A stretch of DNA of 26,389 bases from Candidatus Heimdallarchaeota archaeon B3_Heim (lineage in GTDB: Archaea > Asgardarchaeota > Heimdallarchaeia > Hodarchaeales > Hodarchaeaceae): assembly GCA_003144275.1 (NCBI GenBank), contig NJBF01000045.1:1-26389 (forward strand), given 5' to 3'. The translations under genes and the position numbers were made by a program. This document shows positions 1 to 13,270 of the stretch, piece after piece. A model generated the notes under the pieces. The model saw only the letters and a list, made by a program, of their open reading frames with translations. It made no database searches and had not been told where the DNA came from. Every line of letters starts with the position of its first letter. Positions within the stretch are counted from its first letter, which is position 1.

Positions 1-176
1 ACCTCAGATATCTCTATATTCAGAATCATCACTATATAAGGCTTTTGGCTGCTCTTACTAGCAAATCTGAAGCTTTATAAGTTACGTTAAGACTGAAATA
101 TTTCATCGATAAATAGGGATCAACATCCGATTTGTTTTTCTCTACATTCCTAAGTATCAAACTGGAAACAAAAACA

Positions 177-1217
177 ATGCTATCAGAAGAAGAAAAGCTC
201 TATTTCTCGCGTCAAATAGTCCTTCCAAATTTTGGTGAATCTGGTCAGGAGAAGTTGAAACAATCGAAAATATTGATAGTTGGAATTGGAGGTCTTGGAA
301 CCTTCTCCAGTCTATTGCTAGCTGAAATGGGAGTAGGTTACCTTCGTATTGTCGACCGAGACCTCATTGAAAAGACTAATTTACATAGAACTCCACTTTA
401 TACCGAAGAAGATTTGAATCAAGCAAAAGTTGAGGTTGCAGCAAGGCATTTAAAGAGATTGAATCCATCTATGGTCGTAGATACTCACGCTTGCCACATC
501 AATAGCGGAAACATCGCAGAACTGCTTGAAAGTATTGATCTAGTCATTGATGGTTTAGATAATTTTGAAACTCGGCGTGTAATTAACCGTGAATGTGTGA
601 AGAAAGGTGTACCCTTCGTTTTTTGTGGTGTAAGCGGCAGAATTGGTAACATTGCGATATTCAACTCCACTGATAAGGCCCCCTGTCTCGCTTGTCTTTA
701 TCATGAAGTAAATGATGACGACCTTGAAGGTTGCGATATTACAGGCATCCATCCAGCCCTTCTAGCTGTAATAACGGGACTCCAAGTTCATGAAGCAATA
801 AATTTTCATCTTCACAAGGATACCGCGCTTGTAAACTCCTTATTATTTGTTGATCTTCAGAATTTGAGTTTTAATATGATCCCCATTCAAAAATCGAATA
901 ACTGTAAAGTGTGTTCTTCTTCTGAAAATTTTCAAGTTGAAAAACCTAAAACCGAATATTCTTCTGTAGAATTATGCGGAAGTAACTCCTTTATGATCGT
1001 TCCAGAGAGAAAGCAAGATATTAGATTGGAACAAGTTCTAGAAAAAATTTTGCATGAATTTAAATTAGTGAAACAAGGTAAGCTTGCTTTTACATTCAGT
1101 TATTCAGGGGATACAACTATTTCAGTATTTCAAGGGGGAAATGTTCTTATTAGGGGCCTAGAAACTAAAGAACAAGCGTTAAAAATCTGGGAAAAAATCA
1201 AAAATAAGTACTTATAA
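177..1217 (+). CDS. ThiF/MoeB/HesA family E1-like adenylyltransferase with C-terminal extension
   Basis: YFSRQI, GQEKL, GIGGLG nucleotide-binding loop, DRDLIEKTNLHR, DGLDNFETR, Zn pairs CLAC and CKVC, candidate catalytic Cys in GCDITG. ATG at 177 fits the family N-terminus better than the TTG at 132. Confidence 0.92.
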   Translation: MLSEEEKLYFSRQIVLPNFGESGQEKLKQSKILIVGIGGLGTFSSLLLAEMGVGYLRIVDRDLIEKTNLHRTPLYTEEDLNQAKVEVAARHLKRLNPSMVVDTHACHINSGNIAELLESIDLVIDGLDNFETRRVINRECVKKGVPFVFCGVSGRIGNIAIFNSTDKAPCLACLYHEVNDDDLEGCDITGIHPALLAVITGLQVHEAINFHLHKDTALVNSLLFVDLQNLSFNMIPIQKSNNCKVCSSSENFQVEKPKTEYSSVELCGSNSFMIVPERKQDIRLEQVLEKILHEFKLVKQGKLAFTFSYSGDTTISVFQGGNVLIRGLETKEQALKIWEKIKNKYL

Positions 1218-1434
1218 GAAGGAATTACTTGTAATCATGTTTTCTCGCTTCCTCATCTGATGAAACGCGAAGATTTTTACTAGCACTTCTTATTTAGTCT
1301 TGGCCAACATATACAGTATAGCAAAAATATCAACGAGTTAGCGAATATTAATATAAAGTGCTTAACTGATAACCCTCAGATGAATAGCGGTACGATATTT
1401 TTACAACAACGAATTGTCTGGATGAATAATATAG

Positions 1435-2598
1435 ATGGCTGATGTTATTTTATCTGCTTTTGATGAGAAAGTAGGACCTATTGCGATTTTCACAACAATT
1501 AAAGACCCTATATTGACAAAGAAAATCGCAGTAAAATCAGTTGTTTCCACACTCACTAATGTTAGGACTAGTGCTTCGGAGAATTTAGAAGGTGAGGCAA
1601 TTATTCCTTTTCCTGATGAGAATGTCATTTCGTTTATTTACTATACCACATTGAATCAGCGTACAGAAACTGGAGAACTTCGTGTCATCACACTGAGTGC
1701 AGTGGTGCAAAAGGAAAATAATACTTCTCTCTATGCTAATGCATCCATCCTCTCACAAAACGCGCTACGAATTAAGCGCCTTTTGAATAAAAATTATTCG
1801 TATGGACAACCTCTATCACCAGAGGTGATAAAAGAGCTAGAAAGGTGGGGGGAACTTAAAGAAACACCAAAATCTGAAGTTATTGCTGAAAAAGAGATTG
1901 AATTTGGATTAAGCAGTCTTTTCAAATTATTTCCAACAAAGAAAGACAGTAAAGGCTATTCAGATCCTTTAACTGCATTATTTTTTGGTCTTCTAAGTAA
2001 AATTCCCGTAATATTAATAGGACCACAAATTGAATTTCTATTAGAGCTTACGGATATGCTTCGAGAATTCCGTTCAGAGGAGGAACTTGATGTCAGGATT
2101 TCTATTGATTTAAGAGATCCGACAAATGCAGCTACATTTAAGATACCCAGAGCTGACATAATATTATTAGATGAGCAACAAAATCAAAAGAAACATTTTT
2201 ACGCTGATCCGATTATTGTGATTGGTGTAGGAAGGGATTCAAAGTATATCAATTACACTGGATCTGAGAGTGCAATTCACACTTTCAACAATATATTGAA
2301 AAAAGCTCGTGAGATTTCTGACGAATCAGTGTCGTTCCTTTATCTGAAAGGGGAACTCTTGTCTTTTACGGCAAAGTTAACAAATCTGAAGGCATATTGT
2401 CTCTCTGGAAAGCAAGGTAAGGCAAAAGATATTGCTAAGATTATTAATGTAAATGAAGGTTATCTCTATGCCTTAACTGAAGTAATACGTCTAAGAAGTC
2501 TTGTTCCAGTCGAGCAACTCAATCTGATGTTTAGGAAAAAGACAAAATTTGAAGAATTAGAACTTCGTGGAAAAAAATTCGTTGGCTTTATTCAATAA
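1435..2598 (+). CDS. Longin/uDENN + cDENN-like protein (DENN/NPRL2-like eukaryotic-signature protein), putative
   Basis: N-terminal ILSAFDEKVGPIAIF resembles the hhhxxFDxxxGP start of uDENN/NPRL2 longin domains. The central ALFFGLLSKIPVILIG..LLELTDML resembles the cDENN core helix-strand-helix. The ORF is clear; the fold call is by eye. Confidence 0.6.
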   Translation: MADVILSAFDEKVGPIAIFTTIKDPILTKKIAVKSVVSTLTNVRTSASENLEGEAIIPFPDENVISFIYYTTLNQRTETGELRVITLSAVVQKENNTSLYANASILSQNALRIKRLLNKNYSYGQPLSPEVIKELERWGELKETPKSEVIAEKEIEFGLSSLFKLFPTKKDSKGYSDPLTALFFGLLSKIPVILIGPQIEFLLELTDMLREFRSEEELDVRISIDLRDPTNAATFKIPRADIILLDEQQNQKKHFYADPIIVIGVGRDSKYINYTGSESAIHTFNNILKKAREISDESVSFLYLKGELLSFTAKLTNLKAYCLSGKQGKAKDIAKIINVNEGYLYALTEVIRLRSLVPVEQLNLMFRKKTKFEELELRGKKFVGFIQ

Positions 2599-2634
2599 TA
2601 ATCTTTCATTGAAAAAAAACTGGATTGTTTTGGA

Positions 2635-3675
2635 ATGTCACAACGAGAGAAAGAAATTTCTGGTAAAATTGCTGAGTTGGATAAAGAAAAGAAGATTTTA
2701 GAGGGAACTCGAGCATATTATGAACAGAATCTCTCTTATGCAGAACTTGAGGAAATAACTGGGATATCCATACGTGAATTTAAGAGATTTCAAAGTGATA
2801 ACGAATTTCCTTATCGTGTTGGGTCTTATAATAAACAGGCCATTTTTGACAAAATCCAAAATCGAATAAATGCTATAGAAGCTGAAATCGTAAAACTTCG
2901 TGAATCAGTTTTTGGTGCACTAGATCAATTACTATTCATTCCTTCTTGGCAAACTATGATCGATTCATCCTTCAATGGCTTCTATTTGAATCAACCAGTG
3001 CAAAAGATATTCCAAGATACAGTCATCCTATTACCAGAGCTTGCCATGACTGGATTTGAAGAAACGACAGGGGAACCCTATTTTTTGATCACTGGATTAG
3101 GAATGTATTGGGTAAAATTTGAACTAGGGGCTGGTTCAATAGTAACAGACTACAGAGAAATAACTGGAATCGTATTACCCCTTGATATCTACCACCGTGC
3201 CCAAGATGAGGCGGAGCAAGTTCTGAAAAGCGAAAATATGCGTATGACCGAGTATATGACATCAATACCCTTCTCCTTAATACTAGCAAAATCAACCACA
3301 CAGATGTATCTAAGGGGGGTAATTTCTAGAAATATATTTCATCCCTACAAAGAAAGTTTTGACCAATTCATGAAGTTGTGTAAGGATCCTAATAGTTTTA
3401 ATCCTGATGAAGGTCTCAAAATTCTCTCTGGCGGTCTAACAAGTGATAAATCGTTCTACGGTAACGAACTTCTGACTGAAAAACCATTAGGGGAATATTC
3501 AAGATTAATAGCTGGTATTAAAAATACCCAACCCAAGTTAAATAAAATTTTAGAAAACCTACAACTTGAAACAATGAGTGAGGCGCTTTTCGAGAAGCTT
3601 GTAAAGATAAAAATCGAATTCAGTGAGATTGGTAGAAATTATCTTATTGATTGGATGCCTGGCCATATCAGCTAA
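2635..3675 (+). CDS. Hypothetical protein, N-terminal coiled-coil, 36 nt downstream of the DENN-like gene
   Basis: 346-aa ORF with ATG start. Heptad-like segments (EKEISGKIAELDKEKKIL; IQNRINAIEAEIVKLRE). No family recognised. Confidence 0.8.
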   Translation: MSQREKEISGKIAELDKEKKILEGTRAYYEQNLSYAELEEITGISIREFKRFQSDNEFPYRVGSYNKQAIFDKIQNRINAIEAEIVKLRESVFGALDQLLFIPSWQTMIDSSFNGFYLNQPVQKIFQDTVILLPELAMTGFEETTGEPYFLITGLGMYWVKFELGAGSIVTDYREITGIVLPLDIYHRAQDEAEQVLKSENMRMTEYMTSIPFSLILAKSTTQMYLRGVISRNIFHPYKESFDQFMKLCKDPNSFNPDEGLKILSGGLTSDKSFYGNELLTEKPLGEYSRLIAGIKNTQPKLNKILENLQLETMSEALFEKLVKIKIEFSEIGRNYLIDWMPGHIS

Positions 3676-3681
3676 AGTTTT

Positions 3682-4821
3682 TCAACCAAAGATCTCTTTT
3701 AAAGCATTTTTAATTATCTCAACTTCTGTTTCTGTGACTCCTGGATGAATTGGAACTTCAAAGTGGTTTTCCGATATTCGGTCAGTTATAGGTAGATTAA
3801 CTGTGCTATAATCGGGGTAATTCACGTACATATTCCAACGCCATTCTTTTATTCCCTGAAGGTAAGTTGGTTGTTTATGACATCCTAGAGCATAAATTCG
3901 TCGTGAAGCAATGTTTCTGGCTTTTAACTCCTTAATCACGTTATCAACTGAGTATTTATTCTCATCAACTACGGGTGCACAAACATAATGACTATGGGTG
4001 TAACCTATAGGAGTTTTTTGAATATTTATATGCTCTAGCTCTGATATTGTTTGTCTCAGTGCCTCAGCGTTCCTTTTTCGTTTTTCTAGCATTGATGGTA
4101 ATTTTCTTAATTGAATTAATCCAATTGCAGCTAACGGATCTGGAAGACGATAATTGTAACCAATTCTGTGATGTTCATATCCTCCACTTGGACCCCTGCC
4201 ATGATTTTTGAGGCTTTTAATACGCGAAGCCAGATCATCATCATCGGTAACAATCATCCCACCTTCTCCACTAATCATATTTTTAGTTGCATAAAAGGAG
4301 AAACATCCCATATCTCCGAACGTACCTACATGTTGACCATCGATTTTTGCCCCATGAGCTTGACAGGCATCCTCAATAATCACCAAATCATGATCCTCCG
4401 CAATATCCCTAATGATATTCATATCACTGGGTAAACCAAAAATATGCACAGGAAGAATAGCTTTTGTTTGAGGTGTCACTAATTTTTTTATACTTTCGGG
4501 ATCTATAGTATAAGTTTCAGGATCTATTTCTGCAAAGATTGGTATACCCCCTCCAAATGTAATAGAATTAGCAGAGGCAATGAAAGTAAATGCAGGGGTA
4601 ATAACTTCAGCTCCCGGTAATATATTTGCTGCTTCCATAGCAAGATGTAATGCCGCAGTCCCATTCACTGCACATATTGCATGTTTGGCACCTACAAATT
4701 CTGCAAATTCTTTTTCTAAGGCTCTTGCATTTTTTCCTTCAACAAATTGGCCATTTCGAATAGTTGAAGAAACTAAGGATATTTCCTCTTCCGAAATTTG
4801 GGGTTGTGCAATAAATTTCAT
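3682..4821 (-). CDS. DegT/DnrJ/EryC1/StrS family PLP-dependent sugar aminotransferase
   Basis: NGTAALH, TFIASAN, PVHIFG, IEDACQAHG, FSFYATKN (PLP lysine), GEGG, GYNYRL, PIHP. Start set at ATG 4821 (MKFIAQP), where family homology begins. Confidence 0.95.
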   Translation of the reverse strand: MKFIAQPQISEEEISLVSSTIRNGQFVEGKNARALEKEFAEFVGAKHAICAVNGTAALHLAMEAANILPGAEVITPAFTFIASANSITFGGGIPIFAEIDPETYTIDPESIKKLVTPQTKAILPVHIFGLPSDMNIIRDIAEDHDLVIIEDACQAHGAKIDGQHVGTFGDMGCFSFYATKNMISGEGGMIVTDDDDLASRIKSLKNHGRGPSGGYEHHRIGYNYRLPDPLAAIGLIQLRKLPSMLEKRKRNAEALRQTISELEHINIQKTPIGYTHSHYVCAPVVDENKYSVDNVIKELKARNIASRRIYALGCHKQPTYLQGIKEWRWNMYVNYPDYSTVNLPITDRISENHFEVPIHPGVTETEVEIIKNALKEIFG

Positions 4822-5023
4822 AAAATCAGATCTCTTATTGAAGTTAGTTATTAAACATGAATGTATAGGAATTAAGGTTACTAACAGTGTTTCCGTTAAG
4901 ATCGTAATCAATTTTAGACTGAAACAAATACTCTTAATTCATTTTTGAACAGACTTCTTACAAATAATTACAAATTGAAATCACAAATACTGGAAAAATA
5001 AGAGCACAAAGCTGGGATCATGA

Positions 5024-5737
5024 GTGAATGTGAACATAGATGTCGAACAGATTGTTAATAGATATCAAAATGTATGTTCACAACTTTCTCACTATATCCG
5101 AGATGAAAAACATCCACAGTTTGTACTAGTAACTAAAAATCAGCCTGTAGCTCTAATATTAAATCTTTTACAACATCTAGAATCACCAATCTTTGGAGAA
5201 AATCGTGTTTCAGAAGCACTTTCCAAAATTGAGAAATGTGAAGCTTCTAATGCGGAATGGCACTATATTGGCCACTTACAACGAAATAAAGTCAAATCTA
5301 TACTTGGAAAATTTACTTTGATCCATTCATTGGCTGATATAAAATTAGCAAAAGAGATTGAAAAGAGAGCTGTAACAATTGGTCAAAATGTGAATTGCTT
5401 GATCCAAATAGATATATCTGAGGATGGGACGAAGTTTGGTTTTCCACCAGACCAGAGCTACTTAATCGACTTGATGAATGAATTGACTCAGATGTCCCAT
5501 TTACAAATAAAAGGATTAATGACGATAGCACCTTTCATCCCCTCAGAAGAAACTCGACCATATTTTAGAAAAATGCGGTCAATCTTTGATGTATTAGCTG
5601 AACAAAGCCCTCACCTGAGAAATATTGAAATGGAAATCTTATCCATGGGGATGAGTAATGATTATATCGTTGCACTCGAGGAGGGTTCCACAATGATTAG
5701 AATTGGTAGTGCAATTTTTGAAGATCAAAGCTCCTGA
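5024..5737 (+). CDS. yggS: YggS/PLPBP pyridoxal phosphate homeostasis protein
   Basis: VTK (PLP Lys), FGENRVSE, WHYIGHLQRNKVK, GLMTI, LSMGMSNDY..ALEEGSTMIRIGSAIF. GTG start. Confidence 0.95.
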   Translation: MNVNIDVEQIVNRYQNVCSQLSHYIRDEKHPQFVLVTKNQPVALILNLLQHLESPIFGENRVSEALSKIEKCEASNAEWHYIGHLQRNKVKSILGKFTLIHSLADIKLAKEIEKRAVTIGQNVNCLIQIDISEDGTKFGFPPDQSYLIDLMNELTQMSHLQIKGLMTIAPFIPSEETRPYFRKMRSIFDVLAEQSPHLRNIEMEILSMGMSNDYIVALEEGSTMIRIGSAIFEDQSS

Positions 5738-5745
5738 TTAAATTT

Positions 5746-8700
5746 ATGAAAAGGCAGAACATGAAGTTGATAAATATGACAACTCCAGAAGTTAGTTTTA
5801 CACTAAAAAAAAGTGAAACAAAAATCTTAAACACATTAATATCCTTTGGTGGTCAAACCAAACATGATCTTATTCTTATTTCTGATGTACAAGAAGAAAA
5901 AGCTGAGCAAGCAATTTCAGAATTGATAAAAAAAGAATTTATTAGACTGAACGAAGAAACAGGACGTATTTCCGCTACTTTACCCGTTTCTGCATTAACA
6001 CGAATGCTCACTGAGAATATGGCTCTCATAGAAAATATGAAAGAGAATTATAAAGAGGAATTTCATAGCTCAAAAAATTCTGTAGAAGAAGCATTAAACA
6101 AGTTTCAGGAAACAGTGAATGACGGGTTCAAAGTTCTAAAAACTCAAAATGAAGAATTAGAGGTATCAATAAAGGAGGCCATAGAAGGAAAAGAAAAACT
6201 TAACCACTCGCAGTTAGACGAGATGGTGGATCAAGTAGTTACTTCAATGAATACAAAAATAACTGAAACTCAAAATTCTGTTCAGACAAGTATCTCAGAA
6301 GGGACATCGAAATTAGATAAACACTGGGGTAGAGCCATTGATGAATTTCAAAACTTGCCTGACTCTGGGACCCGTTCTCTCAAAGATTCTATCACTAAAT
6401 ATGAACAAGAGTTAAATGAGATTATAAAATCCTCAGTTGAAAAAATTAATAGCATCCAAACTCAATTTAATGATCTACTAGGTGCAATTGAAACTGAATC
6501 CGTTACTAGGATACAAGAATTCTACTCGAACACCGATACTGTTGGCAGTGACCTGAAAGTTAATTTAAACACCGGATTACAAGAATCTCGCAAACACGAA
6601 AAGGAATTCATAAATGAAGTACATCAACATGTGAGAACCTCACTCGAAAATGATGTACTAAACGCATTGAAGGCAGTAATTTCAGATTTATCAAAAGAAA
6701 TTGATAATGATATAAACGAGGCTCTAAAACTTGTTGTTCAGCAAACTGATAAAGCAATCACTGCAAGTTCAGAACAAATGAAGACAGAGTTTACTGAGTT
6801 CACTGAAGATGCAAAGGAATTAATCCAAGAACAAAAAATCTCATTAAATGTTCTTGAAACAGAGATTTCGGAGATTACAGCAGAGCAGAAGCTAGAATCA
6901 GTAAGAGACTTATTTCTAAGCCAATTGCAAGCCGGTCAAACTACAGAACTTAATCAATTGGAAACAAGCTACCGACACACTCAAAAATCAGTAATCGATC
7001 TTGTTGAATCTTTAAGAAATTCTGCAAAAGCTAAATTAGCCCAACAAGGAGCAGAGTTTGAAAAGCTAATCAACAATTTTTCTGATTTAATTGACCAATC
7101 GGTGAGTCGGAAAGAACTGGATATTACTAGATTACAACACCTATCTCAATCTATTGAACAATTATTAAGAAATTTGCTTGTCTCAATTCCAATGCGTACA
7201 AATCAATTTAGAATTTCCTTGAAAGATTCATTAGAAGGCACTAACAAAAGTTTACAAGAAGAATATACAGAATCTTCGAGTGGTTCCGTAAGTAAAATTT
7301 ACGAAAAACTTGCTAATTCTCAACAAAGAATTGAATCTATAACTAATGAAACACTGGATGAAAGTAAAAATGAAATTGAGAAAGTAATTGCCTCATCAGA
7401 TCAATTTCAATCTGGTATTTCTGCTCTTCAAGAAGATTATCTGAGTAAAGTTGAGAATCGATTTGATCAGAGAGCTAAAGTGATGAATACAGAGTTAGAA
7501 GCAATAACTCGCAATTTCCAACAATTACTTGAGGGAATTGAAACAGGAGTTGGAGGCATTCATTCTCGTTTGACTTCGGAAGGCGTTACAAATATTTCTG
7601 CTGTTGAAACCTCTCTTCAGAGCAAACTAACTCAACTTAGGAGTGAAATAACTACCATATTTTCACAGAGTCAATCTGAGGCGCAAGAATTTGTTAGTTC
7701 GTTAAATGAAAATTTACAAACCCATTTAGAACGCACATTAGACGTAATTAAAGAGGGTTTTAGTCAAGTCAAATCTGAATATAATTTAGAGCTATCAAAT
7801 CAGTTAGAACAGCTTAATAACAAAAGTAAAGAACAACAAGACACTTTAATTGAAACAATAGAAGCTTTTTCACAGAAAGCATCCTTTAGTGGTTTTAAAT
7901 CGAATCTCGAGAAAACCCTTGAAGAAAATCAAAGTACCCTAAATGAGTTTATTGCGGAAAATCGAAGCAGTTTGGATGAAGTTATTTCTTTACAGAAAGC
8001 AAACATTACCAAATATCAAGAAAAAGGGCCTACGGATATATTAGGTTTTATTAATCAAATTCAATCCAATGCTACAACTCAAAACAAGAATATTAAGGAC
8101 TCACTGGAAGACCTACTTTCCTACCACAACAGTTTTTCAGATTCAACGATGTCTGAGGTAACAACATTAATTCGTCAGGTTCATGAGAGTGGAGATAAGC
8201 TTAAATCAATTCTTAATGAATCTTTACAGACTATGTTAACCAACCTGAATCGTACAAGCGAAAATATTGATTTATATTATTCTGATACACTAACGGAACT
8301 AGAAAATCAGCTTGGAGTCACTTCAGGATTTGTTACCTCCGAAATTGACACTTCCTTTCAATCGATCCGAAGTGAAATTGAGTCATTGAAGGAGGGTATG
8401 GAAAATACAGTAGCAAGGCTTAATACAGATCTCAAAGGAATAGTTTCTGATTCAGACCAAGAATTCAAGAGTAATGTTCCTGAAATCACAGAACAATTTT
8501 CTAGCGCTTTCGACACTTTGGTAAAAGAAAAAACCTCCTCTAACTTAGAGTTACAAAATACACTCTCTGATAATATGACAAATTTTATGAAATCTTATAG
8601 TTCTCAAGTGTCTGCTATTAGAACAAAGCTACATGATTTATTAGCTCAATTTAACAAAGCTATTGAGTCGAATCTTGAAAATTTAGACGTTATTGTCGAA

Positions 8701-9960
8701 ACTAATATAAGTCAAGCTTTGAAAAGAATCGAATCTATATATCATATCGATTCAAGCAAAGAAGATCCATTTGGTTTGCGAGATATTCATTCCAAAGTCA
8801 CAGTGGCAAATAAACGGTTAAAATCTGTCGTCTCTGATTCAATTCGTACTCAGCTTGAAGACTTTGAAAGTAACCTACCTGATCTACAAACCTCTTTTGA
8901 CGCTATTCACACTCAATCTGAGGAAGATTTGACAAAATCTATCGAAGAATTATCCGATATAATTTCAAGTTCTCAAATGACTCTTACTACCGATCTGCAT
9001 AATTATCTAAATGAGGAAAGAGAGCAATTGGATTTTTCAGAATTACGAGATGGCCTGAAGGATGTTTTACAAGGTTTTAATGAAGACTCAACCCAAAATA
9101 TTGAACAGCTCTCTCTTGATTTTACCGACAGTATTCAACGTGCAATCAATGAGGTTAACAAATCACGGGAAGAAATACAATCAATTTTAGCTGATTTGAC
9201 GGAAGTAATGACGGAGCGAATTGTCAAGTCAACTACACAATTGACAACATTGAAGTCCGACCTGAGTATGAAAGTGGAAGTGATGAGTAGTGAATTTTCA
9301 AAAAATTTATCTACAGATCTAGAATCGTACAATAATGATATAGAAAAATCTAATTTAGAAAACAAAGGGAAAATGGCCAAGTTTATCCAATCATTGAATA
9401 ATGAAATTGAAACTTATCTCTCAGAATTTTTAAACAAAACCAATGAAATTCTAAACGGGATAAAAGATTCCCACTCACAGCAAGCCGATGTTTTGGAAAC
9501 TTTAGAGACTGAATTATCTGAAAATGAGCCAATTTCATATTTACGGTTACTAAAATTATCAACAAATCATGCGATCAATGAATACTTTATGAAGCTAATA
9601 GAAAAAGCTTCTAAACGAGTTACGTTATATATGTCCGATCCTACTATTCTTTCATCTGCTGATCTCAAATCTATTCCCGCAGGAAAACGAATTTGGATTT
9701 TTACAAGCTATGATTTCAGTAAAAAGGGTAAAAAATGGTTTACTGAGATTGGTAATCAAGTAAATATAAATTTACGAAAATCTAAAGGTGCTAGTAAAAT
9801 TACTGGGATATTAGCCGTCAAGGATGAAGATCAAGCCGTTGTCTTACCTGATGAAGTTGGTTTTACCACAGTTGATGAGAAATTTGTGGCTTACTTGTCG
9901 AATATATTAAATATGTTAAAGGGTTCATCTCTCAGACCAAGAAAAGGATCTGGTCAATAA
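5746..9960 (+). CDS. Giant TrmB-like protein: N-terminal wHTH, ~1200-aa amphipathic helical/coiled-coil region, C-terminal PLD-fold effector-like domain
   Basis: The N-terminus ETKILNTLISFGGQTKHDL...AISELIKKEFI...ATLPVSAL matches the TrmB wHTH pattern. The C-terminus INEYFMKLIEKASKRVTLY...RIWIFT...ILAVKDEDQAVV matches the TrmB sugar-binding/PLD-like fold. The middle is rich in E/Q/S/L/N/K and almost free of Pro. The exact start (5746, 5761 or 5776) is uncertain. Confidence 0.7.
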   Translation: MKRQNMKLINMTTPEVSFTLKKSETKILNTLISFGGQTKHDLILISDVQEEKAEQAISELIKKEFIRLNEETGRISATLPVSALTRMLTENMALIENMKENYKEEFHSSKNSVEEALNKFQETVNDGFKVLKTQNEELEVSIKEAIEGKEKLNHSQLDEMVDQVVTSMNTKITETQNSVQTSISEGTSKLDKHWGRAIDEFQNLPDSGTRSLKDSITKYEQELNEIIKSSVEKINSIQTQFNDLLGAIETESVTRIQEFYSNTDTVGSDLKVNLNTGLQESRKHEKEFINEVHQHVRTSLENDVLNALKAVISDLSKEIDNDINEALKLVVQQTDKAITASSEQMKTEFTEFTEDAKELIQEQKISLNVLETEISEITAEQKLESVRDLFLSQLQAGQTTELNQLETSYRHTQKSVIDLVESLRNSAKAKLAQQGAEFEKLINNFSDLIDQSVSRKELDITRLQHLSQSIEQLLRNLLVSIPMRTNQFRISLKDSLEGTNKSLQEEYTESSSGSVSKIYEKLANSQQRIESITNETLDESKNEIEKVIASSDQFQSGISALQEDYLSKVENRFDQRAKVMNTELEAITRNFQQLLEGIETGVGGIHSRLTSEGVTNISAVETSLQSKLTQLRSEITTIFSQSQSEAQEFVSSLNENLQTHLERTLDVIKEGFSQVKSEYNLELSNQLEQLNNKSKEQQDTLIETIEAFSQKASFSGFKSNLEKTLEENQSTLNEFIAENRSSLDEVISLQKANITKYQEKGPTDILGFINQIQSNATTQNKNIKDSLEDLLSYHNSFSDSTMSEVTTLIRQVHESGDKLKSILNESLQTMLTNLNRTSENIDLYYSDTLTELENQLGVTSGFVTSEIDTSFQSIRSEIESLKEGMENTVARLNTDLKGIVSDSDQEFKSNVPEITEQFSSAFDTLVKEKTSSNLELQNTLSDNMTNFMKSYSSQVSAIRTKLHDLLAQFNKAIESNLENLDVIVETNISQALKRIESIYHIDSSKEDPFGLRDIHSKVTVANKRLKSVVSDSIRTQLEDFESNLPDLQTSFDAIHTQSEEDLTKSIEELSDIISSSQMTLTTDLHNYLNEEREQLDFSELRDGLKDVLQGFNEDSTQNIEQLSLDFTDSIQRAINEVNKSREEIQSILADLTEVMTERIVKSTTQLTTLKSDLSMKVEVMSSEFSKNLSTDLESYNNDIEKSNLENKGKMAKFIQSLNNEIETYLSEFLNKTNEILNGIKDSHSQQADVLETLETELSENEPISYLRLLKLSTNHAINEYFMKLIEKASKRVTLYMSDPTILSSADLKSIPAGKRIWIFTSYDFSKKGKKWFTEIGNQVNINLRKSKGASKITGILAVKDEDQAVVLPDEVGFTTVDEKFVAYLSNILNMLKGSSLRPRKGSGQ

Positions 9961-11796: not shown

Positions 11797-12043
11797 TTAT
11801 TTCTACCAATCTCGACTAGTCGGGGCACTATTTGTGGTTTCTGGAAAAAGCTGGATAAAAGCTAGTTAGTTTCGAAGGTAGAGCCTAATAAATGTCGTAA
11901 AATGTGGATTTGAAGACATTCAACTAAACTACCCAAACAAAAATGTCTATAGTAATAAAGCAAATATTCAAATTATATTCTCGAATCAGTTTTTTTTCAG
12001 CAAACAACTACTATTTTCATATTTCCTGAAGGTGACCCTAAGT

Positions 12044-13270
12044 ATGTCCGATGACCAAACTGATAATCCCTTGATACTCACTGAGATGGCTCCTGATTTT
12101 GTTTCAGATTTTATAGGAGCAATTAGTATGGTATTTCTTGTATTAGGTGGATGGTACTTTTTCTTTACTCTAATTTACCCAATTCTCGTAATTAACTTTG
12201 ATTTTTTGGGAATAATTGCCGCAATGATAATAATGATGGTTTTCTTAACCTATAGTTTCGGTAAATTTAGTATTTTTTTGAGTGTTATTGCCTATCAATC
12301 AGCTTCGTGGCGTACAGGCGTTCCTTACATGAATGATAAGACAAAGTGCCCCTTTCTACAAAGAAAATTTCTGAAATTTTACTGTATAGCAGAACAGATT
12401 GCAGAATTTGATGTTCCAGCCTTTGTGAAGTGCCATAGAGAGACAATGTGGTTAGAATGCTGGCCAGACCGTGTACCATCGATAATAGACGTTTTTGATT
12501 CGGTTCCGTCTAAACGGCAACAACAGTTAGCCTTCATTCTCGGGGCGATGAAAGAGCGTTCTCTGTCTGCGAGCTTTAAAATGCATGAAGTATTATTAAA
12601 TGAAACGTTGGAGATGGATATTCGATTAGCAGCAGGTTATGCCCTTGCTGAGATGAAGGATGAAAAAGCAATTGAACCCGCTATTTCTCTTCTTGGTCAA
12701 ACGGCTGCTCGTCAGGAAACCACAGTTCGTGCAGTAATTGCTCGATTTGGAGAACTTGCTATTCCCTACGTAACTGCTGCTCTTAAAACGTGTGATGAGG
12801 ACCTAAAATGTGGTGCTTTAGCAGAAGTTTTGGGTAAAATTGGAGCCCCAAGCGGAATCCCTGCTCTTGATAAAATTTTGAATGAACCTTCTTCAGAGGA
12901 TTATACACGATTACAGGCAATATATGCATTGCAGGAAATTGGTACAAAGGAAGCATATGAGAGTTTAATCAGACATCTAGAAATTGCACAAGAAGAAGAG
13001 AAACTAACTATTAGAGATGTGTGCATGGCTAAAAAATTGGAAACATTCCCCATATTGATTGAATTATTAAATAACGAGGATTTGTCTGAAAGTTACTTTG
13101 CTGAAGTTGGAGATATTTTAGCACAAGTTCAAGCCCCAACTTATGATAAATTTTTCTCAAAATTAGAGGATAAAGAGTTAGTAAAACGATTAGTTTTGAC
13201 ATTAAAGGACCATACACCAGAGGAAGAGGAATATTTACCTTTACATGCAGTCCTTGATACGTATATCTAA
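12044..13270 (+). CDS. Membrane-anchored HEAT-repeat (PBS-lyase-like) protein with a Cys4 segment
   Basis: Two or three N-terminal hydrophobic stretches. Repeats such as IRLAAGYALAEMKDEKAIEPAISLL, ALAEVLGKIGAPSGIPALDKIL and RLQAIYALQEIGTKEAYESLIRHL. ATG at 12044 preferred over GTG at 12032. Confidence 0.8.
   Translation: MSDDQTDNPLILTEMAPDFVSDFIGAISMVFLVLGGWYFFFTLIYPILVINFDFLGIIAAMIIMMVFLTYSFGKFSIFLSVIAYQSASWRTGVPYMNDKTKCPFLQRKFLKFYCIAEQIAEFDVPAFVKCHRETMWLECWPDRVPSIIDVFDSVPSKRQQQLAFILGAMKERSLSASFKMHEVLLNETLEMDIRLAAGYALAEMKDEKAIEPAISLLGQTAARQETTVRAVIARFGELAIPYVTAALKTCDEDLKCGALAEVLGKIGAPSGIPALDKILNEPSSEDYTRLQAIYALQEIGTKEAYESLIRHLEIAQEEEKLTIRDVCMAKKLETFPILIELLNNEDLSESYFAEVGDILAQVQAPTYDKFFSKLEDKELVKRLVLTLKDHTPEEEEYLPLHAVLDTYI

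Follow-up and report, generated by a model that had tools for sequence, protein, structure and literature searches.

A giant TrmB-type protein with a long, length-conserved helical body in Heimdallarchaeota

Layout of the giant gene

The window analysed here is the whole stretch of 26,389 nucleotides that makes up positions 1 to 26,389 (forward strand) of contig NJBF01000045.1 of Candidatus Heimdallarchaeota archaeon B3_Heim (assembly GCA_003144275.1), and its subject is a single giant gene with a frame of 1404 open codons. The encoded protein is an uncharacterised variant of the TrmB family, in which a TrmB-type winged helix-turn-helix at the N-terminus and a phospholipase D (PLD)-like domain at the C-terminus are joined by a very long acidic helical region, and it is most likely a structural scaffold. 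Its composition is dominated by Ser, Glu, Leu, Thr, Lys, Ile, Asn, and Gln, with 13 Pro and not a single Cys in the whole chain. No membrane segment was found (the highest 19-residue hydropathy is 0.9), and the protein is predicted to be soluble. Coordinates of these features, of neighbouring genes and of two paralogues in the same genome, each with the same layout of winged helix, long acidic helix and PLD-like end, are collected in Table 1.

Table 1. Features of the giant gene, its surroundings and its paralogues
Feature	Position (in the window unless a locus is given)	Strand	Basis
Giant TrmB-type gene, protein of 1404 amino acids (aa)	5746..9960	+	Open reading frame list, translation
TrmB-type winged helix-turn-helix, residues 18-80	5797..5985	+	Pfam family match, profile against PDB, AlphaFold2 (AF2), Foldseek
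Recognition helix, residues 50-62 (EEKAEQAISELIK); wing, residues 66-77			
Acidic Ser/Thr/Asn/Gln-rich helical region with 11/3 periodicity, residues 81-1259	5986..9522	+	Composition, Fourier transform, AF2, conservation, Pfam
Conserved Pro/Gly breaks: P205/G208, P482, G601, G671, G761-P762, G816, G861, P912, G1010, P1045			
Non-catalytic PLD-like alpha/beta domain, TrmB/TrmBL2 type (by model), residues 1263-1397	9532..9936	+	AF2, Foldseek, VIA-align
Basic loop KKGKKW on the PLD-like domain, residues 1326-1331	9721..9738	+	Alignments A1 and A3
YggS-type pyridoxal phosphate-binding protein (Ala_racemase_N), directly upstream of the giant gene	5024..5737	+	Pfam
Upstream block kept with the giant gene across the genus: ThiF/E1-like gene, two proteins without Pfam family, DegT aminotransferase (opposite strand)	132-4911		
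The two upstream proteins without Pfam family	1435-2598 and 2635-3675		
799-aa paralogue, same genome: TrmB winged helix, long acidic helix, PLD-like end	L014:271-2670 (G000 contig C23)		
763-aa paralogue, same genome: TrmB winged helix, long acidic helix, PLD-like end	L015:255-2546 (G000 contig C8)		

The terminal domains

The N-terminal domain is a TrmB-type winged helix. The Pfam TrmB family (PF01978) matches all 27 members of the aligned family at E<=0.01, the best at 3.4e-8, and a family profile built on residues 1 to ~105-115 of each member has as its best four matches in the PDB the structures TrmB 3qph and TrmBL2 5bpd, 5box, and 5bqt, all aligned over their residues 11-102, with E-values of 4e-4 to 7e-4 for 3qph and 5bpd. 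The AF2 model of the head folds as three helices followed by two strands (H-H-H-E-E), with a predicted local distance difference test score (pLDDT) of ~80, and Foldseek matches this head, together with the start of the next helix, to TrmBL2 5bpd (103 aligned columns, 25% identity).

The C-terminal domain is, by its predicted structure, a PLD-like fold of the TrmB/TrmBL2 type that lacks the HKD motif. Sequence searches of this domain against Pfam and the PDB gave no match; its AF2 model, computed for residues 1235-1404 from a 27-sequence alignment, reaches a pLDDT of 86.8. In the PDB, the best Foldseek matches are TrmBL2 and TrmB (E 6e-8), with the PLD-fold proteins NucT, Zucchini, FAM83, and F13 next, while the best matches among the Swiss-Prot entries of the AlphaFold database are Bacillus subtilis YrhO and then TrmBL1, TrmBL2, and TrmB, in alignments that take in the helix preceding the domain. 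In VIA-align, superposition onto residues 110-243 of TrmB 2f5t, the first effector subdomain, gives Z 12.8 with a root-mean-square deviation of 2.5 A over 122 residues; scores for TrmB and TrmBL2 lie at Z 12.4-12.8, TrmBL2 falling within 1 Z unit of the top. With respect to the catalytic HxK(x)4D motif, none of the 27 members has an HxK at the corresponding position, and a PLD enzyme such as Nuc, Zucchini, or cardiolipin synthase was rejected for lack of the HKD motif, though the fold matches at Z 12.7. The second, sugar-binding subdomain of TrmB and TrmBL1 (with Gly320 and Glu326) is likewise absent, because the protein stops right after the PLD-like domain and the TrmB alignment reaches only residue 243. 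The sugar sensors TrmB and TrmBL1 (PDB 3qph, 2f5t) thus match in the winged helix and the first effector subdomain (Z 12.7-12.8); however, the giant protein lacks their second subdomain, has a linker ~35 times longer, and has no sugar-transport or glycolytic genes nearby. Since the sugar-binding subdomain is missing, a sugar sensor was rejected and a simple sugar-sensing repressor is unlikely, in keeping with the preliminary description of this stretch, which had argued against a simple repressor.

The C-terminal domain has a net charge of +9 and a conserved loop with the pattern F-[ST]-K-K-G-K-K-W, of which K1326, K1327, G1328, and W1331 are invariant and K1329 and K1330 are kept in >=90% of members. 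This KKGKKW loop may be regarded from its sequence as a candidate polyanion-binding site, and the motif is specific enough to recover the family when used as a search pattern. A profile of the C-terminal domain run against 1.84 billion representative proteins returned 13 matches, nine of which are fragments or members of the giant family at E<=1e-30; the other four are weaker and include proteins of 991 and 519 aa.

The helical body

Examined against the chain-pairing helix of TrmB, the amphipathic helix that follows the winged helix begins at residue 81 and runs on for ~1,170 residues. Within residues 90-1260 there are only 6 Pro, the net charge is about -89, and Ser, Thr, Asn, and Gln make up 35% of the helical region (residues 81-1259). 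The dominant hydrophobic period is 3.68 residues (11/3), at a power 4.4-4.5 times the 95th percentile of shuffled sequences and with a harmonic at 2.21; the 11-residue member of the 7-, 11-, and 22-residue periodicities that the preliminary description had asked after is thus present, whereas heptad power (3.5) is near zero. The hydrophobic phase is coherent within blocks of ~200 residues and jumps from one block to the next, and conserved hydrophobic positions occur at ~2.9 per 11 residues. On a helical wheel, these positions form a stripe of three adjacent bins, or ~100 degrees, which follows a straight line down the helix, with Asp/Glu and Ser/Thr/Asn/Gln covering the remainder and with Lys/Arg not flanking the stripe. 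Because the stripe is narrow, the period 11/3, and the rest of the surface acidic or polar, the pattern fits the expected signature of straight, unsupercoiled helix-on-helix packing, and not that of a heptad coiled coil or of a lipid-coating helix. A similar packing rule is seen in the E/G peripheral stalk of A/V-type ATPases (PMC3293630), a hendecad right-handed two-helix coiled coil in which the 11-residue periodicity is shared; however, sequence and context of that stalk are unrelated and it spans only ~100 residues, so that the likeness is one of packing and not of function.

In the low-confidence AF2 model of residues 11-1208, DSSP assigns 972 of 1128 residues to helix (86%), distributed over 11 helices of 40-146 residues. 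Breaks fall at or near P205/G208, P482, G671, G816, and G1010, whereas the helix runs through G601, G761-P762, P912, and P1045, and the stretches 477-526 and 792-851 are left as coil. No Walker A motif was found in the giant protein, and a fragment of SMC, Rad50, or MukB was rejected, there being no Walker A, no hinge, and no SMC or AAA match in Pfam. The outline given in the preliminary description, namely a TrmB-type head, a TrmB effector or PLD-like end without a nuclease motif, and between them a long, Pro-poor helical middle that is neither SMC nor ATPase and resolves into no known globular domain, is therefore borne out.

The middle matches the Pfam family Apolipoprotein A1/A4/E (PF01442), with 95.2 bits against a 90-bit cut-off, summed over 5 stretches, and apolipoprotein A-IV is the best PDB sequence match, at only E 0.005. 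With apolipoproteins A-I, A-IV, and E (PDB 3s84) the giant protein shares the 11/22-residue amphipathic periodicity, but it lacks their class-A charge pattern and Pro punctuation: the hydrophobic face covers only 3 of 11 bins, Lys and Arg do not line both of its interfaces, and the protein is strongly acidic, intracellular by its architecture, and conserved in its polar residues. A coat of 11-residue amphipathic helices on a membrane or lipid body, with the PLD-like domain holding a phospholipid head group, is accordingly suggested by the Pfam score, by a periodicity typical of lipid-binding helices, and by a Lys-rich loop on a PLD fold, but is highly improbable given a narrow face made of Leu, Ile, and Phe without basic flanks, a polar face of net -89, the lack of Pro-punctuated 22-mers, an exact length and a conservation of polar residues unexpected for a surface-coating helix, an N-terminus that is a winged helix and not a signal peptide, and the lack of any conserved lipid-metabolism context.

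Conservation and fixed length

The helical part does not behave as a loose spacer, to judge from its alignment. Mean column conservation is 0.63 there, as against 0.60 and 0.68 in the end domains, and within it polar positions (0.62) are conserved nearly as well as core positions (0.67). Down to 35% identity only ~8 indel columns occur in 1,170 helical residues, several of them near predicted breaks. Two 2-residue indels, at residues 615-616 (7588-7593) and 713 (7882-7884), swap between subgroups, such that one subgroup carries only the first, another only the second, and a third both.

Among 5.8 billion proteins searched, 33 homologues of the giant protein were recovered. Those of full length measure 1386-1418 aa, with identities of 35-96%, and where a source is named it is a metagenome-assembled genome labelled Hodarchaeales, Hodarchaeota, Heimdallarchaeota, or 'Thorarchaeota'. 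Among 400 Asgard genomes, the ~1400-aa form is confined to the window's own Hodarchaeales genus, where 19 of the 21 genomes have it. The KKGKKW-loop pattern, run over 185,579 species genomes, gave 22 loci, all in Asgard metagenome-assembled genomes and most of them labelled Hod- or Heimdallarchaeota. Such wide conservation across the genus and the databases indicates that the gene is real and under constraint.

A family of length classes in Asgard archaea

The architecture is not unique to the giant gene, a point that the preliminary description had missed. Across Asgard archaea a wide family comes in several length classes, of which the giant gene is one; two shorter members occur in the same genome, and the giant form is the longest class of exact length seen in the genus. 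In other Asgard families the C-terminal profile matches at E 1e-5 to 1e-13, in each case at the end of the frame, in frames of 747, 761, 1080, 1297, 1722, and >1818 aa. Four complete frames among these relatives were scanned and all have a TrmB match at their start, above the Pfam cut-off in three; an Apolipoprotein-like middle is present in 6 of 6 scanned relatives. All seven relatives measured are acidic and Pro-poor, and six of the seven (747-1818 aa) have a period of 3.65-3.68, the 763-aa paralogue having 3.58, with heptad power near zero.

For the two paralogues, the C-terminal profiles match alignment A3 weakly (E 0.016 and 0.0014), collinearly and at the right place; they are counted as family members chiefly for their N-terminal TrmB match and the common layout. 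The 799-aa type is itself of nearly constant size (799-800 aa in most full-length database clusters, at 40-78% identity); among its members are one from Candidatus Hodarchaeum mangrovi and, at 24% identity, one from Odinarchaeota. Features from the ESM Atlas lead to TrmB-carrying Promethearchaeota clusters of 652-872 aa, and relatives are also found among database proteins labelled Odin-, Thor-, and Hermodarchaeota. The family is known so far almost exclusively from Asgard archaea. Its members go by 'helix-turn-helix domain-containing protein' in public databases, or by labels that conflict even among orthologues of the giant protein (P0025, P0014, P0015), namely 'sugar-specific transcriptional regulator TrmB', 'apolipoprotein A-IV repeat region-like', and 'DNA repair exonuclease SbcCD ATPase subunit'; the regulator and ATPase labels are unsupported, the latter being without any motif behind it. 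Full-text literature searches turned up no account of long TrmB-type proteins from Asgard archaea, the closest relevant papers being those on TrmB and TrmBL2 (PMC4158304, PMC4877046, PMC11840125).

A model for the giant protein

The identity of the domains, the hydrophobic periodicity, the composition, the degree of conservation, and the phyletic spread given above are observed; oligomeric state, DNA binding, overall shape, and cellular role are what we infer in the model that follows. This model, to which we assign a probability of roughly one half, proposes that the giant protein is a derived TrmB member of the TrmBL2 type, the pairing helix of which has grown to ~1,170 helical residues, and that it acts as a fixed-size structural scaffold attached to a polyanion and not as a regulator that senses metabolites. 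TrmBL2 (Pyrococcus furiosus PF0496 and Thermococcus kodakarensis TK0471; PDB 5bpd, 5box, 5bpi, 5bqt) is a tetrameric chromatin protein that coats DNA (PMC4877046, PMC4158304). It has the same domain order as the giant protein, is also without the sugar-binding subdomain, and is the top Foldseek match in the PDB for both ends. However, TrmBL2 measures 264 aa, has one short pairing helix, and keeps Tyr50 and Asp51, whereas the giant protein has its ~1,170 helical residues in place of that helix and Glu or Asp in place of the Tyr; identity between the two is only 12-25%, and the KKGKKW loop is a feature of the giant family. Two helices of the giant protein, the one that follows the winged helix and the one that precedes the PLD-like domain, each align to the single TrmBL2 pairing helix, which places the insert within it, so that growth of a TrmBL2-type pairing helix from within would be the simplest history suggested by the alignments. 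Oligomeric ends like those of TrmBL2 would then attach to a polyanion, most likely DNA and without reading its sequence, with the KKGKKW loop as a second candidate contact, and the acidic helical body would serve as a fixed-size spacer or docking surface to which DNA cannot stick. The helices of this body may pack against those of another chain, or the body may fold back on itself at the conserved Pro/Gly breaks. Outside the family, an analogy may be drawn with plasmid proteins of the KfrA type (PMC7821693), in which a small helix-turn-helix head is joined to a long helical body without an ATPase and a scaffold has been proposed; KfrA, however, shows no homology, has no C-terminal PLD-like domain, and is far shorter, bacterial, and plasmid-borne.

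Several observations weigh against this model. Taken by itself, the giant protein matches PF01978 (residues 18-72) at 20.4 bits, below the 25.6-bit cut-off. The position of Tyr50, the main DNA-reading residue of TrmB (PMC4158304), is Glu or Asp in 26 of the 27 members, in which the Tyr50/Asp51 pair of the TrmB recognition helix is not found, and the recognition helix itself is acidic, reading EEKAEQAISEL; because the DNA-reading Tyr is replaced, DNA binding by the head is uncertain, and the DNA-binding head assumed in the preliminary description is called into question. At the other end, the PLD nucleases Nuc and NucT tie with TrmB in VIA-align (Z 12.7). The helical part of the AF2 model has a pLDDT of 58.5 and a predicted template modelling score (pTM) of 0.29, so that no packing is confident; the AF2 model is uninformative on how the helices pack and favours neither a rod nor a folded-back body. 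For an extended spacer, the preliminary description had also placed the head more than 100 nm away from the C-terminal domain; such a distance is only one possibility, as AF2 breaks the helix at conserved Pro/Gly sites and leaves the possible geometries indistinguishable. Finally, the neighbours of distant family members are unrelated and YggS is not adjacent there, so that no conserved context points to chromatin or another process; since neighbours differ in distant members, function cannot be read from gene context.

With regard to shape, the body is computed to measure ~175 nm when fully extended, about half of that with one fold, and ~20 nm if helices of 120-150 residues zigzag. Some degree of fold-back has slightly better odds than full extension, because the breaks are conserved and neighbouring helices are of similar length (122/122, and 146/148 with a kink). 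Mirror-image correlation of hydrophobic patterns over all pairs of predicted helices, in search of antiparallel partners, yielded no pair that stood out, and prediction of a complex between residues 11-180 and 1166-1400, which asks if the ends meet, scored 0.25 against a mark of 0.32, evidence neither way. Aligning the sequence to itself produced offsets of 270-350 residues (95% probability). An origin by four-fold duplication of hairpin units was rejected, as unit-versus-unit hhalign comparisons did no better than reversed-sequence controls. A fold search with the 1198-residue model gave no match at E<=0.001, and its rows for MukB and condensin, at TM ~0.1, are meaningless at a pLDDT of 58.5.

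An alternate scenario builds on the extended tether of the preliminary description, in that two chains form one continuous parallel rod of ~175 nm with the winged helices at one end and the PLD-like domains at the other, bridging DNA to the membrane, the cytoskeleton, or a second DNA. The scarcity of Pro, the high helix content in AF2, and an 11/3 stripe coherent over blocks of >200 residues are consistent with such a rod, strict conservation of length would suit a molecular ruler, and low intramolecular confidence in AF2 is what would be expected if the helices pair between chains. However, the conserved Pro/Gly breaks have invariant flanking motifs and cut the helix into 11 pieces of 40-146 residues, and the hydrophobic phase jumps between blocks. 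In addition, the pairing helices of TrmB cross antiparallel (PMC4158304), and both stubs of the giant protein map there, which favours a placement of the end domains together. As DNA binding by the head is also doubtful, we consider this scenario unlikely.

It is similarly doubtful that the giant protein is a scaffold or cytoskeletal element that has lost DNA binding, its ends being modules for protein-protein contact or self-assembly, for example in filaments or lattices built head-to-head and tail-to-tail. Such a role may explain an acidic recognition helix that has lost its reading Tyr, and the strong conservation of polar surface residues along the whole helical part implies specific partners; many paralogues per genome in many length classes would also be in line with it. 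PLD-fold domains usually pair, as in Nuc and the PLD family. However, polymerisation is without direct evidence, the invariant Lys-rich loop and the +9 charge of the C-terminal domain suggest a polyanion ligand, and the closest solved relatives bind DNA.

A more far-reaching proposal, which appears quite improbable at present, is an ATPase-free skeleton made of the long TrmB-derived proteins of Asgard archaea, as fixed-length helical struts that self-assemble via TrmBL2-like ends and organise or anchor the chromosome, the length classes of ~800 and ~1400 aa acting as molecular rulers. Were this to hold, the closest relatives of eukaryotes would possess a prokaryotic counterpart to a nucleoskeleton. 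The window's genome encodes three or more proteins that derive from TrmB and have a very long helical body, each of exact length across species. Should these prove to have a structural role, whether on DNA or in the cytoplasm, they would form a new class of architectural proteins in archaea and show clearly how the scaffold of a transcription factor has been turned into a structural one.

Gene start and genomic context

The 5' end of the frame (5746-5778) holds three in-frame ATG codons (M1, M6, and M11). In ~20 orthologues the start residue aligns with M11, and because most orthologues begin there, the true start is probably the ATG at 5776. An AT-rich stretch, TTAAATTTAT, lies ~30 nt upstream of 5776 and could serve as an archaeal TATA box, giving a transcript that has a short leader and is independent of yggS. 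Among public runs, none holding RNA reads was listed.

Upstream, the YggS-type gene adjoins the giant gene in all orthologous loci inspected (L002-L005). The downstream neighbour is an aldehyde:ferredoxin oxidoreductase gene on the opposite strand, facing the giant gene. In orthologous loci down to 35% identity, the order of the block is XPD helicase, ThiF, an unknown protein of 346-351 aa, DegT (opposite strand), YggS, the giant gene, and aldehyde:ferredoxin oxidoreductase (opposite strand), with an extra unknown protein of ~385 aa after ThiF in some of them; the XPD-like helicase of this block lies just outside the window. The first of the two upstream proteins without a Pfam family (1435-2598) is putatively DENN/longin-like. 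Further downstream, the window encodes a HEAT/PBS-lyase repeat protein of 412 aa (12032-13270), and a similar gene is found near the orthologue in one of the inspected loci (L003).

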